Positions 4,797 to 8,847 of a DNA stretch of 8,848 nt are shown piece after piece. The DNA comes from Candidatus Odinarchaeota archaeon. Lineage in GTDB: Archaea > Asgardarchaeota > Odinarchaeia > Odinarchaeales > Odinarchaeaceae. The stretch spans positions 1-8,848 of the forward strand of contig JAWBON010000025.1 of the NCBI GenBank assembly GCA_038826135.1. Reading direction: 5' to 3'. The notes under the pieces were generated by a model. It saw nothing but the letters and a program-made list of their open reading frames with translations. It ran no database searches and had not been told where the DNA came from. Position numbers and translations under genes: made by a program. The first letter of the stretch is position 1, and every line of letters begins with the position of its first letter.

Positions 4797-6050
4797 TTAA
4801 GCGAGCGTTACTTCGATTTCCTCACCGAGGATTTCTTTAAGCTTCTCGGCTAGGGTTTTTAAATCTCTGTCTATTTTACCTTCTAGATTTTGGATCAGAG
4901 TTTCTATCTGGTCAGCGACTACTTTTTTATCGGCAAGCTGTTTTTCTATCTCCTCTATTTTAGATATTATAATCTCGGATTCTTCTATCAAACCTTTTTC
5001 AGCGATGATTGTTTTCAACTTTTCTTTTAATTCAATTGAAGCTTTAGCTTTAACATACAGTTCATCTAAAAATTCATCCCCTAATATTCTGCTGATTTGT
5101 TTAATAGCTCTGTCAGCTCTATCCTGTTTTAATTCCAGCTCATTGTCTAGGAGACTTCGCTGAAGAACTTTCAAAATCTGTTTCAACGCAGGTAACCCTT
5201 CTGTTTCAGATATGAAGGTGTTAAATGGCTCTGATATGTATTTATCAATCGTGTTTCTCTGCTCAGCTGTTAAATCAGCAAGCGCTTTAGATGAACTCTT
5301 AGTTAGTTTCGCTAAAGGTTTAAGAACAGGGTTTATTAGCATATTGAAGCTACGCCGAATATTATTTAACTCTTCATCAGCTTTCATATGCTCTTTCTGT
5401 AAACCTGTAGTCTTGAACTTTAAGTAGTTGTCTTCTTCAGTTTTAAGCTGTTTTTCTATTTCACATATTTCAATTTTAACTGATTCAAATTTATCTTGAA
5501 GATTTTTTTTCTCTTTTACTGATTCGATAAGCATGTTAGCCGAGTCGATTATTTTATCAACCCGTTCAATCTCCTTGTATTCTTTGAGTAGAAATTGATT
5601 GGTTTTATCAACCAGTTCGGCTAGTTTACGGATGTTGAAGTCTAAATCTTTAAGCTCTGTTTTAAACCAGGGAGTCATTTTAGGCACGAGCTTGCGACCA
5701 AGCTCGTTAATATTTAGAAAAAAATTTTTTACCTCGCTGTTAAGATTCATTAAACTATTATAGCTGCAGTTTTCATCAATCTTGATTTTATTAAGGTATT
5801 CTAGTATACTGTTACTTAGTTTTTCAGAGGCTTTAACAGCTAATTCATGGCTTTTAACATCTCCCTCCATTGTTTTAAACGCTTCCCGGCCTTTGCTTGT
5901 TAAAAATTTCTCAGCTGAGAGTTTTACCTGCCCTATTAAATCAATGATTTTCTGTTTACTTAACTGGGCTTTCACACGAAGGGGAGAGTAGCGTTTATCG
6001 TTTTTCTTATTAACATAGTCTTTAACCTCATCCAGCCTTATTTTAATCAT
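4797..6050 (-). CDS. Hypothetical all-helical/coiled-coil protein, about 417 aa
   Basis: Long K/E/L-rich heptad stretches flanking a central helical segment; no Walker A, no TM segment. ATG 6050 overlaps the end of dys and lies 6 nt after GAGCGTG (alternative start GTG 6059). Confidence 0.75.
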   Translation of the reverse strand: MIKIRLDEVKDYVNKKNDKRYSPLRVKAQLSKQKIIDLIGQVKLSAEKFLTSKGREAFKTMEGDVKSHELAVKASEKLSNSILEYLNKIKIDENCSYNSLMNLNSEVKNFFLNINELGRKLVPKMTPWFKTELKDLDFNIRKLAELVDKTNQFLLKEYKEIERVDKIIDSANMLIESVKEKKNLQDKFESVKIEICEIEKQLKTEEDNYLKFKTTGLQKEHMKADEELNNIRRSFNMLINPVLKPLAKLTKSSSKALADLTAEQRNTIDKYISEPFNTFISETEGLPALKQILKVLQRSLLDNELELKQDRADRAIKQISRILGDEFLDELYVKAKASIELKEKLKTIIAEKGLIEESEIIISKIEEIEKQLADKKVVADQIETLIQNLEGKIDRDLKTLAEKLKEILGEEIEVTLA

Positions 6051-7008
6051 TTTTTTCACGCTCAGTTTTCGATAAGCGTTCTTTAACAGCTGCTACAATT
6101 ATAGGAAGAACTATTGTCGCGTCAGCGATTAAATCCACCCAAGGGGCTTCACTTTTAATTTTACCCCATGATTGAGCTTCTCCAAGCGAGGCGCCGCTTA
6201 AACCACCAGGTTCAGGTCTGTCCATAGTTATCTGGATAGCGTAGTCGAATCCTCTTCCAGTGATCAGCATAGTCTGTAATATATGGTTTTTAGGAACACC
6301 GCCTCCGACTGATATGACGGCTGCGCGCTTAGATTCATAGGCCATGTCAATCATTTTTTGAATGTCTTTAAGAACATCCACTACTAGTGGTTTCCGCTGA
6401 CGGAAAAGCCATAGTTGAAGGCCTAGTATAGAATCTGTTATAGCCGGGCAGAAGACTGGGATGTTTTTTTCAACAGCGTTTTTTACTATAGAGTTCTCGT
6501 CGGTAAGGTGTCTTCCTATTTCCCATATTAATTCATACACTGCTATGCCTTTTTCACTTTTAACAGGATCTATTTCGCCAAGTATCCTTTGAATATTTTT
6601 CTCAAAATTTACGAACTCCCTGTTTCTCACATATATATCGTATATTCTGTTTATTCCAAGCCTGTGAAGATGAATATCACTGTAAGTTTTTGAGAGCCGG
6701 ATATGATGTCCGCCGAAGGCTTCAATAAGATCATGGGTTAAATTAGCCCCTGTTGTAACTATCGCGTTAATGTAATCTTCTCTCATCAAATCAACTACAA
6801 CTTTCCGCATACCAGCCGGTACTAGTGCGCCAGCTAAGCCTAAAAATCTTAAAGCTTCTTTATCAGACGCTATTTTCTCTAAAATATTCGCGGCTTCGCT
6901 GAGACGGCCTGCACCGAAAGCCCCGGATCTTTCAAATTGAAGCATTAACTCGTTTAATGACATCCCTGTTTTAATATTAATTGGGTGAACGAATCTTTCC
7001 TGATCCAT
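6043..7008 (-). CDS. dys: Deoxyhypusine synthase (aIF5A modification)
   Basis: FLGLAGALVPAGMR, IVTTGANLTHDLIE, NRIYD, FCPAITDSILG, GGGVPKNH and GGLSGASLGEAQSWGKI with the catalytic Lys of SWGK; GGGG SD 6 nt upstream of ATG. Confidence 0.95.
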   Translation of the reverse strand: MDQERFVHPINIKTGMSLNELMLQFERSGAFGAGRLSEAANILEKIASDKEALRFLGLAGALVPAGMRKVVVDLMREDYINAIVTTGANLTHDLIEAFGGHHIRLSKTYSDIHLHRLGINRIYDIYVRNREFVNFEKNIQRILGEIDPVKSEKGIAVYELIWEIGRHLTDENSIVKNAVEKNIPVFCPAITDSILGLQLWLFRQRKPLVVDVLKDIQKMIDMAYESKRAAVISVGGGVPKNHILQTMLITGRGFDYAIQITMDRPEPGGLSGASLGEAQSWGKIKSEAPWVDLIADATIVLPIIVAAVKERLSKTEREKND

Positions 7009-7112: not shown

Positions 7113-7120
7113 TTTATATA
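7113..7120 (+). promoter_or_regulatory. TATA box TTTATATA of the tRNA gene
   Basis: Consensus archaeal TATA 33-40 nt upstream of mature tRNA position 1. Confidence 0.65.
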
Positions 7121-7167
7121 ATAATGGGTTTTTTATGAGTATTGATTAATATAGCGGGGTGGGGTAG

Positions 7168-7192
7168 GCTACCGTTAATAAGGTGGGCCTAT
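7168..7192 (+). other. tRNA intron 1, position 15/16, 25 nt
   Basis: hBHBh': TG(7160-61)/CA(7194-95); central helix GGGT(7162-65)/GCCT(7187-90) with two G:U pairs; bulges AG|G and AT|T; outer helix CTACC/GGTGG (5 bp). Confidence 0.8.
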
Positions 7193-7199
7193 TCAGGAG

Positions 7200-7213
7200 A
7201 CCTTTGGCTTGAA
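7200..7213 (+). other. tRNA intron 2, position 20a/21, 14 nt
   Basis: Central helix CAGG(7194-97)/CTTG(7208-11); bulges AG|A and AA|A; outer helix CC/GG closing a TTT loop. Confidence 0.82.
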
Positions 7214-7230
7214 ATCCCGCGGGGCTCATA

Positions 7231-7247
7231 AAGAGAGCCCTGGAGAA
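7231..7247 (+). other. tRNA intron 3, canonical position 37/38, 17 nt (relaxed BHB)
   Basis: Removal restores CTCATA|ACCCCG. Central helix CTCA/GGAG has one A.G mismatch; bulges TA|A and AA|A; outer helix only AG/CT. Confidence 0.85.
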
Positions 7248-7255
7248 ACCCCGAG

Positions 7256-7281
7256 ACAAGCACGAATAGTACTTGCGGGAA
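7256..7281 (+). other. tRNA intron 4, position 45/46, 26 nt
   Basis: Perfect central helix CCCG(7250-53)/CGGG(7276-79); bulges AG|A and AA|A; outer helix CAAG/CTTG. Confidence 0.88.
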
Positions 7282-7307
7282 ATCGATGGTTCAAATCCAT
7301 CCCCCGC

Positions 7308-7337
7308 ACAGAATTATAGAACATGATTCTGGGGGAT
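7308..7337 (+). other. tRNA intron 5, position 71/72 in the acceptor stem, 30 nt
   Basis: Central helix CCCC(7302-05)/GGGG(7332-35); bulges GC|A and AT|T; 9-bp outer helix CAGAATTAT/ATGATTCTG. Removal gives CCCCGC|TACCA, restoring U72, A73 and CCA. Confidence 0.85.
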
Positions 7338-7367
7338 TACCAATGTCTCCTAAGTGGCGTATGCCAA

Positions 7368-7389
7368 CCCCGCTACCAATCCCCTGCTA
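7368..7389 (+). repeat. Two tandem downstream copies of the intron-less tRNA 3' end
   Basis: 7368-7380 CCCCGCTACCAAT equals spliced 7302-7307 + 7338-7344 (13/13). 7379-7389 ATCCCCTGCTA equals mature positions 63-73 with one substitution (10/11). Confidence 0.8.
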
Positions 7390-7393
7390 AAGA

Positions 7394-7402
7394 TTCTTTT
7401 TT
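7394..7402 (+). terminator. Oligo-T terminator candidate (TTCTTTTTT) for the tRNA transcript
   Basis: First T-run downstream of the tRNA; lies after the 3'-end repeats and before the convergent DUF35 stop at 7415. Confidence 0.5.
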
Positions 7403-7414
7403 AGAAAATTGTTT

Positions 7415-7822
7415 TCACATCACAGGGCGGAATTTGAAACCGTAGTGTATAACACCGTTCTCCCCGTCATCGTAGATTCTGCGTATGACGGCTTCTACAG
7501 GCATACCTATCTCTAACTTATCTACATCACAATCTGTTATTTGAGATAATACTTTAACACCGTTCTCTAGTTTGACTATAGCTATCGCATAGGGAACATA
7601 TATCTCGTATTTTAAAGGTGCCTGTCTAATGATTGTAAAAGATTCGATAACACCCTTCCTGGGTAGCGCTATTTTCTCAAGATTTTTAGATTTACAATTA
7701 TTACATACTGTTTTAGGTGGGAAGTATATATGATTGCAGGATAGGCATTTAGAAGCTTCTAGACGATAGTGTTGGGGTATTTCTCTCCATAATTTCGGAA
7801 CTCTTAATTCACTCGTGTTCAC
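7415..7822 (-). CDS. DUF35-family Zn-ribbon/OB-fold protein (thiolase partner)
   Basis: WREIPQHYRLEASKCLSCNHIYFPPKTVCNNC (CxxC...CxxC), then OB-fold ESFTIIR..PYAIAIVKLENGVKVLSQI..KLEIGMPVEAVIR; GTG overlaps the thiolase TGA. Confidence 0.92.
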   Translation of the reverse strand: MNTSELRVPKLWREIPQHYRLEASKCLSCNHIYFPPKTVCNNCKSKNLEKIALPRKGVIESFTIIRQAPLKYEIYVPYAIAIVKLENGVKVLSQITDCDVDKLEIGMPVEAVIRRIYDDGENGVIHYGFKFRPVM

Positions 7823-8847
7823 ACCCTCCTTAAAATTTGAATAGTTGAATTTGACCCGGCTCCGCTTAATGTTTGACTTAACCCTATTACAGGATTCGAG
7901 TCTATTTTCAGCTGCGCGTCGCCTCTTAATGTTAAAGCAATCTCAGCTGTCTGGTAGACGCCTGTTGCTCCTACAGGATGGCCTCTAGCTTTCAATCCGC
8001 CACTGATATTTACTGGTTTACCACCGTTCTTCGAGAAATAGCCTTCCTTTAACAGTTTCGCAGCTTCACCTCGCCTAGCGAAGCCTAGTTCCTCTAATGC
8101 CATTAAACCGTAAATAGTGTATGAGTCGAATATTTCAGCTACTTGAATATCTTCAGGTTTTATTTTAGCCATTTGATATGCTTTTTCAGCAGCTATTCTT
8201 ATTGATTTAAAGTCTAAGAGATCTTCTCTTTGAGTTAAACCTAGTGAATCTGAGGCTTGACCTATCCCTGAGATTTGAATAGGGGTGTCGGTTATTTTTT
8301 TAGCTTTTTCTAAGGGGCAGAGTATTAGGGCGGCAGCCCCGTCACCTAAAGGCGCGCAGTTCATTAATGTGATCGGGTCGGCTATAGGTCTAGCGTTAAT
8401 AATAGAGTCGATTGTCACTTCGAAGCGTAGCTGAGCGTAGGGATTGCTTACAGCGTTTTTATGGTCCTGTTGGGCTAGTAAAGCTATATCTTCAACACTT
8501 ACATTATATTTATGCATGTACAGTCTCATGACTAGTGCGGCTGCACCTTCAGGGGATAGGCCTTGAATAGTTTCATATTCATGGAATAACCCTAATGAAA
8601 TTATCGACTCAGCTTCGGCGGAGATAGCTTCAGACATTTTTTCAACGCCACCTACTAGAACGAAATCATGTGAGCCTGATGCGACATCGTTGAAGGCTGC
8701 GATTATAGCGCTGCCGCCTGAAGACTCACCTGTCTCTATTCTAGTCGCTGGGATATTGTTAAAACCAGCGAAGTCAACTAGCAGTGATGAAAGATTCTTC
8801 TGATGGTTAAATTCGTCAGCTGCCATATTACCTATGTAAGCTGCTTC
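7819..8847 (-). CDS. SCP2-type thiolase-fold protein (acetyl-CoA acetyltransferase-like), 5' end outside the window, catalytic motifs substituted
   Basis: Frame continues past ATG 8826 to the window edge (EAAYIGNMA). Motifs VGGVEKMS, CAPLGDGAAALIL, NISGGLKARGHPVGATG; ETGESSG at the nucleophile site and FDSY at the HDxF site. Confidence 0.88.
   Translation of the reverse strand, partial: EAAYIGNMAADEFNHQKNLSSLLVDFAGFNNIPATRIETGESSGGSAIIAAFNDVASGSHDFVLVGGVEKMSEAISAEAESIISLGLFHEYETIQGLSPEGAAALVMRLYMHKYNVSVEDIALLAQQDHKNAVSNPYAQLRFEVTIDSIINARPIADPITLMNCAPLGDGAAALILCPLEKAKKITDTPIQISGIGQASDSLGLTQREDLLDFKSIRIAAEKAYQMAKIKPEDIQVAEIFDSYTIYGLMALEELGFARRGEAAKLLKEGYFSKNGGKPVNISGGLKARGHPVGATGVYQTAEIALTLRGDAQLKIDSNPVIGLSQTLSGAGSNSTIQILRRV

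Follow-up and report, generated by a model that had tools for sequence, protein, structure and literature searches.

Can a tRNA gene be interrupted so close to its 3' end that splicing has to supply the last five nucleotides, and what would make the joining of so small an exon workable? The question is raised by contig C25 of a metagenome-assembled Candidatus Odinarchaeota genome (1.26 Mb, 38% GC), the whole 8,848-nt stretch that was analysed and that is called the window below. The RadA of this genome shares 95% identity with the RadA proteins of MAGs designated Candidatus Odinarchaeia/Odinarchaeota. The first-pass annotation had proposed a BHB intron at position 71/72 of an initiator tRNA gene. 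The 5' end of an Asgard initiator tRNA starts at position 7153, after which the tRNA pieces are interrupted by short inserts. With the compact initiator genes of other Asgard genomes as a guide, the exons were assigned as follows:

7153 to 7342, forward strand: initiator tRNA-Met gene with six exons and five introns, the joined exons being called by ARAGORN as a 78-nt tRNA-Met(CAT)
7153 to 7167, forward strand: exon 1
7193 to 7199, forward strand: exon 2
7214 to 7230, forward strand: exon 3
7248 to 7255, forward strand: exon 4
7282 to 7307, forward strand: exon 5, with the 3' part of the variable loop, the T arm and acceptor positions 66-71 (CCCCGC)
7308 to 7337, forward strand: intron 5, 30 nt, at tRNA position 71/72 (between C71 and U72), placed by the BHB register and the spliced product
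7338 to 7342, forward strand: exon 6, 5 nt, supplying U72, A73, C74, C75 and A76 (TACCA, invariant in 7/7 orthologues)

When the five introns were removed, ARAGORN returned a tRNA-Met(CAU) with a perfect full cloverleaf and the 3' end CCCCGC-UACCA. No tRNA was called in the unspliced gene by ARAGORN or by Rfam at the gathering score; at a permissive E-value, Rfam gave only a partial and mis-registered match. The spliced product shows the marks of an archaeal/eukaryotic-type initiator, namely the CAU anticodon, A1:U72, A73 and an anticodon stem whose base consists of three G-C pairs, and it ends in CCA. It equals the compact Asgard initiators except in the T stem and at one D-loop base, the latter being variable among those initiators as well. 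A1:U72 and A73 are invariant in the compact Asgard initiator genes compared, and both U72 and A73 of the spliced product come from exon 6. The junction C71|U72 A73 C C A is an exact fit to the 5' strand AGCGGGG. The splice junction is predicted as CCATCCCCCGC|UACCA, and the contiguous sequence CCATCCCCCGC+TACCA is absent from the genome. In each of five genomes, including the single-contig G002 and the six-contig G001, the initiator anticodon arm occurs once. A T-arm motif scan of this genome found that all other tRNA-like T arms lead into a contiguous acceptor strand and that most tRNA genes encode CCA. The six exons lie in tRNA order on a single strand and span 190 nt; the gene is therefore neither split nor permuted.

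The tRNA gene lies between neighbours at 6043-7008 and 7415-8826, both on the reverse strand, and the flanking genes encode deoxyhypusine synthase and a thiolase plus DUF35-type OB-fold/zinc-ribbon pair. Upstream of the gene there is one candidate signal:

7113 to 7121, forward strand: TATA-like box TTTATATAA, about 36 nt upstream of A1 and conserved in the own-genus alignment

By its sequence and position this box may serve as the promoter, and with this spacing from A1 the 5' leader would be short.

The 3' strand of the T stem (CCATC, 7297-7301) passes into that of the acceptor stem (CCCCGC, 7302-7307), and the next two bases are A7308 and C7309. Without splicing, A1 therefore faces A72 as a mismatch and no CCA follows, just as the first-pass annotation had read it. 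Applying the BHB rule of 3-nt bulges cut following the second base, we delimited the splice motif of intron 5 as follows:

7302 to 7305, forward strand: exon strand of the BHB central helix, C66-C69 (CCCC), paired 4/4 with 7332-7335 and invariant in seven orthologues
7306 to 7308, forward strand: 5' bulge GC^A, with the predicted cut after C7307 (C71); its third base is A here and U in the sister genus
7309 to 7331, forward strand: intron-internal hairpin with a 9-bp helix (7309-7317/7323-7331) and loop 7318-7322, from RNAfold and with compensatory changes
7332 to 7335, forward strand: intron strand of the central helix, GGGG, paired with 7302-7305
7336 to 7338, forward strand: 3' bulge AU^U, with the predicted cut after U7337, in the BHB register

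The motif thus has two 3-nt bulges on opposite strands (GC^A at 7306-08 and AU^U at 7336-38), and its intron-internal helix (h'), for which at least 2 bp are required, comprises eight Watson-Crick pairs and one G.U. The 9-bp helix had initially been taken for an outer helix; it is internal to the intron, and the exon-side helix (h) has 0 bp between 7301 and upstream bases and 7339 and downstream bases. The motif is therefore not of the strict hBHBh' type and belongs to the class HBh'. On its far side, the 3' bulge lacks a closing helix unless CCAA 7340-43 pairs with UUGG 7204-07, A7339 then being an extra unpaired base. Because the exon-side helix is missing, cleavage would rely on a broad-specificity enzyme, on stacking of the T stem or on the CCAA:UUGG pairing. 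HBh' motifs are canonical under published rules but need a broad-specificity enzyme (PMC4090602, PMC8450103, PMC11291895, bioRxiv 10.64898/2026.10.13.758758).

The genome encodes two EndA paralogues, one of which keeps a His-containing catalytic-type motif and the other of which (on C45) is without it. The gene for the catalytic-type paralogue is split over the end of C48 and the start of C72, and the translated ends overlap; the two contigs probably join at this gene. Judged from their sequences, the two paralogues would fit the heterotetrameric type known for relaxed motifs. RtcB, an RNase Z scoring above the family cut-off and a CCA-adding enzyme are also encoded. The RtcB gene (G000:C16:2586-5357) is one 995-aa open frame that carries an intein-like insert of approximately 470 residues behind RtcB profile position 50.

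How readily could such a motif arise by chance? The strict core (4/4 central pairs and an inner helix of at least 5 bp) occurred in 77 of 400,000 random site pairs of this genome. A second copy of the mature 3' end lies at 7368-7378, and as a result eight different excisions would restore the tRNA 3' end and yield an identical mature sequence; only one of them, the 30-nt excision, has a BHB core.

Similar architectures were searched for in 400 Asgard genomes. The pattern CCCCCGC, a gap of 20-50 nt and then GGGGGNNTACCA was found in six of them, with 0 control matches. These six comprise 4/4 genomes of the own genus and two of the three of the sister genus, the third being 78% complete, and the 71/72 design is absent from about 394 other Asgard genomes. 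A metagenome contig (L031) added a third lineage, giving seven sequences in all; the other of the two metagenome matches (L030) lay inside GC-rich, tRNA-free sequence and was rejected as chance. All seven orthologues keep CCCC, GC^N, GGGG, A(A/U)^U and UACCA. The intron helix reads CAGAA.../...UUCUG in the own genus, CGGGA.../...UCCCG in the sister genus and CGAG.../...CUCG in L031, with compensatory A-U to G-C swaps at helix positions 2, 3 and 4 across the three lineages, which are related, so that their counts are not independent. On this body of sequence, chance is excluded as the origin of the 71/72 pattern by the random-site rate, the unique excision, the distribution and the conserved core with its compensation.

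The comparison also altered the role that had been assigned to the intron. Splicing was originally said to create both A1:U72 and the CCA end. This holds for the own genus, and the part concerning the CCA end holds everywhere; in the sister genus (L005 and L006), however, the base after C71 is already U, so A1:U72 is present in the unspliced form and its creation is not the conserved purpose. By sequence, what is conserved is that the 3' exon alone always supplies A73 and CCA. The original view that splicing is needed to attach U72-A73-CCA through the 5-nt exon TACCA in the present gene is well founded on sequence and comparison. The other introns differ between the lineages: L005, L006 and L031 have an extra T-loop intron (after TTCAAA) that the own genus is without, and the variable-loop intron is missing from L031. 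The set of introns therefore changes from one close lineage to the next, whereas the 71/72 intron and the trailer are retained.

The trailer, which is conserved in 7/7 sequences, contains three elements, and a T run follows it:

7340 to 7351, forward strand: CCA-A of the 3' end followed by the trailer strand GUCUCCU, pairing with UUGG 7204-7207 (intron 2) and AGGAGAC 7195-7201
7355 to 7366, forward strand: trailer hairpin of 4 bp with loop GUAU, covarying between lineages as UGGC/GCCA, CCGG/CCGG and UUGGC/GCCAA
7368 to 7378, forward strand: decoy copy of the mature 3' end, CCCCGCUACCA, found in 7/7 orthologues and conserved as CCCCGCU(A/G)CCA
7397 to 7402, forward strand: T6 run downstream of the decoy, read from sequence

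The T6 run is likely to act as the transcription terminator, as far as its sequence indicates. Together with the preceding trailer base A7367, the decoy can base-pair with the precursor from U(-1) to U8. Its discriminator position is G in L002 and L003 of the own genus and that of UACCA is always A73, which identifies the copy as a decoy and not as the true end. The decoy is present in 7/7 genes with the 71/72 intron and absent from 7/7 Asgard initiator genes without that intron. Further downstream, CCCTGCT at 7382-7388 can pair with bases 1-7 through one G.U; it is unconserved in all relatives and probably due to chance.

In RNAfold minimum free energy (MFE) structures, the 5' acceptor strand pairs with the decoy in 6/6 genome orthologues, and in the four own-genus genes the intron 5 BHB adjoins the T arm while CCAA 7340-43 pairs with UUGG 7204-07. 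For the window precursor, the MFE structure is the decoy-plus-BHB conformer; its advantage over the native-acceptor conformer is 13 kcal/mol at 37 C and 9 kcal/mol at 70 C, and it is still favoured once introns 1-4 have been removed. The second contact of the trailer, drawn from the MFE folds of six orthologues, involves AGGAGAC 7195-7201, which consists of exon 2 bases 7195-7199 and the first two bases of intron 2. This pairing to the D-loop exon is GUCUCCU:AGGAGAC in the own genus, CGGUCUCUU:AGGAGACCG in the sister genus and GGGUCUCC:GGAGACCC in L031; the duplex lies at the same site in the three lineages, and intron 2 base 4 co-changes with its trailer partner. In shuffle tests, a duplex at the same site with the same energy arose in approximately 0.1-1.5% of cases per lineage, which is of moderate significance only, and the argument for the duplex accordingly rests on the shared target site in three lineages and one compensatory change. 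The trailer strand overlaps the central helix of the intron 2 BHB (CAGG 7194-97), so the two structures are mutually exclusive. Within window 7194-7213, intron 2 itself is 14 nt long, with cuts AG^A and AA^A, a central helix CAGG/CUUG, an inner helix of 2 bp only and a 3-nt loop.

The two copies of the 3' strand allow other readings of the locus. The true 3' end could be the downstream copy CCCCGCUACCA at 7368-7378, with 66 nt removed in one piece and the upstream TACCA irrelevant. In the window, this copy matches a mature 3' end perfectly, and it is conserved in 7/7 orthologues, yet we consider the reading very unlikely: a 66-nt excision forms no BHB in any of its seven equivalent registers (0-2 of 4 central pairs and 0-3 inner-helix pairs), the G at the discriminator of the copy in L002 and L003 stands against the A73 that UACCA keeps in 7/7 sequences and that all compact Asgard initiators have, and a strict BHB and UACCA would be conserved without reason. 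tRNA 3' ends are a common target of integrases, which leave direct repeats there, and the two copies, 66 nt apart, resemble such repeats. The CCCCGC duplicates might accordingly be att-site repeats of an integrative element, with the intron as a decaying scar in a former initiator gene. Among the neighbours of the tRNA gene in the window, namely deoxyhypusine synthase and the thiolase/OB-fold pair, there is no integrase or mobile-element gene; moreover, the gene is the only initiator gene in each of five genomes, and its structure is conserved with covariation across three lineages, which argues against a decaying scar. The probability of this explanation is close to negligible; it is possible that an integration or duplication gave rise to the structure, which was later co-opted.

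The remaining alternative leaves the intron in place: RNase Z would cut after position 73, CCA would be added and the tRNA would end in ...CCCCGCAC(CCA). Both RNase Z and the CCA-adding enzyme that this requires are encoded, and the unspliced acceptor strand of the sister genus (CCCCGCU-C) is nearly normal. The initiator would then carry A1.A72 in the own genus or A1:U72 with C73 in the sister genus, an outcome that we hold to be extremely improbable, as we do the unspliced end itself. A1:U72 and A73 would be destroyed in the own genus and in L031 despite their invariance in Asgard initiators, the conserved BHB core, the compensatory changes and the invariant UACCA would be unexplained, and, with the trailer present, the fold required by RNase Z, the native-acceptor conformer, is less stable by 9-13 kcal/mol. 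Very probably, then, 7308-7337 is a genuine archaeal BHB intron that interrupts a single initiator gene at C71/U72 and is spliced by EndA and RtcB, perhaps with assistance from the trailer. The 71/72 intron of the first-pass annotation thus gains a strict 4/4 core, a unique excision and seven orthologues, and on sequence and comparison it is well supported as a real intron, an unusual version of a type already known; cleavage and ligation at intron 5 are predicted from the same sequences.

If intron 5 is spliced in this manner, the pathway may run as follows. The trailer copy CCCCGCU would occupy the 5' acceptor strand and the GUCUCCU strand would clamp the D-loop exon, so that C66-C69 could pair with the intron GGGG instead of with G4-G7 and form the motif. 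This decoy conformer would expose the BHB and keep the tiny 3' exon tethered to the body of the tRNA for ligation. The splicing endonuclease would cut after C7307 and after U7337, and RtcB would join C71 to the 5-nt exon UACCA, the source of U72, the discriminator A73 and CCA. After ligation, the contiguous C66-U72 strand would take over the acceptor stem, and RNase Z would remove the trailer as the last step by cutting after the encoded CCA. We infer this order of steps. That splicing precedes final trailer removal had been argued before and is sound as logic, because the 3' exon would be lost if the unspliced form were cut at position 73. For the proposal that the intron gates initiator supply, the sequence and comparative evidence offers nothing in favour and nothing against.

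The decoy probably explains how a 71/72 intron can work. Whether the trailer has two jobs, freeing C66-C69 for the BHB and tethering the 5-nt exon for ligation, is about an even call. In more general terms, we tentatively suggest, at somewhat below even chances, that a dedicated flank-encoded surrogate of the acceptor strand sequestered by the BHB, together with a D-loop-exon clamp, is what makes terminal acceptor-stem introns workable; conceivably, and with the same reserve, such an element would hold the partner strand, present the BHB and tether the 5-nt exon for RtcB.

Published work on RNase Z offers a point of comparison. The archaeal enzyme cuts just after an encoded CCA, needs the acceptor stem and a mature 5' end, and accepts intron-containing precursors (PMC7479834). 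By analogy, this behaviour would fit trailer removal after splicing, and the specificity of the enzyme may explain why the decoy keeps NCCA. As in the CCA-encoding pre-tRNAs of that study (PMC7479834), most genes here encode CCA and RNase Z is present. In contrast to the published substrates, the precursor has two NCCA sites, one real and one decoy, and the real one would become a substrate only after splicing.

Non-canonical BHB introns, several per gene, are known from Thermoproteales and include a 3/4 acceptor-stem intron, and the archaeal tRNA intron positions listed in the reviews consulted span 3/4 to 59/60 (PMC4090602). Multi-intron tRNAs also occur in Asgard archaea (PMC11291895; bioRxiv 10.64898/2026.10.13.758758). 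The present gene resembles these cases in its several introns and in the two-paralogue EndA encoded in the genome, but differs in the 71/72 position, in a 5-nt 3' exon with U72, A73 and CCA, in the absence of the exon-side helix, and in a conserved trailer with predicted pairing to both the D-loop exon and the 5' acceptor strand. The nearest mechanistic analogue of the trailer, in terms of its predicted pairing, is found in split and permuted tRNAs. In the tRNA halves of Nanoarchaeum equitans and in the permuted tRNAiMet and tRNATyr of Thermofilum pendens, complementary flanks assemble the BHB (PMC3218864). There, a non-tRNA flank complementary to another part of the precursor gathers the pieces for BHB cutting and ligation (PMC3218864), as the trailer is predicted to do here; in both, an initiator tRNA is among the affected genes, and CCA is genome-encoded. 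Unlike those genes, the present one is collinear and probably gives one transcript; their flanks form a GC-rich helix adjoining the BHB, whereas the flank here is an acceptor-strand copy with a D-loop clamp, and their junctions lie at 37/38 or 59/60 rather than at 71/72.

The 71/72 intron and the trailer decoy are probably new. No report of either was found in the accessible literature, whose coverage leaves out the main intron catalogues (Marck and Grosjean 2003; Sugahara 2008). Introns near the tRNA 3' end are mentioned in the methods of tRNAscan-SE 2.0 (PMC8450103). An Asgard census refers to a small number of insertions in the acceptor stem but gives no details on them; it states that genes missed by tRNAscan-SE escape detection, as do insertions no more than a few bases from the gene end, and it mentions neither Odinarchaeia nor initiators (bioRxiv 10.64898/2026.10.13.758758). 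The closed-genome Odinarchaeum paper makes no mention of tRNAs. Because ARAGORN and Rfam miss the gene and the census is poor near gene ends, such genomes would be scored as lacking an initiator tRNA.

The sole initiator tRNA is predicted to be unfit for aminoacylation or aIF2 binding until the 5-nt exon has been spliced on, which would make EndA/RtcB splicing essential for all translation initiation in these Odinarchaeia. A 5-nt exon with no pairing of its own also stretches the known tolerance of BHB splicing, and it indicates a flank-encoded helper structure that is testable in vitro.

A related arrangement was observed in another Asgard family. The genome G032 contains an initiator tRNA (L018:1434-1591) with a BHB intron at 7/8, which has the central helix GCGG/CCGC, the inner helix CUACCC/GGGUAG and the bulges GG^A and AA^U; G041, of the same genus, has a compact initiator without the 7/8 intron. 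The 5' leader of the G032 gene carries a second AGCGGGG, 8 nt upstream, that pairs with the 3' acceptor strand in RNAfold, and the same helper solution may have arisen in mirror image in this lineage.
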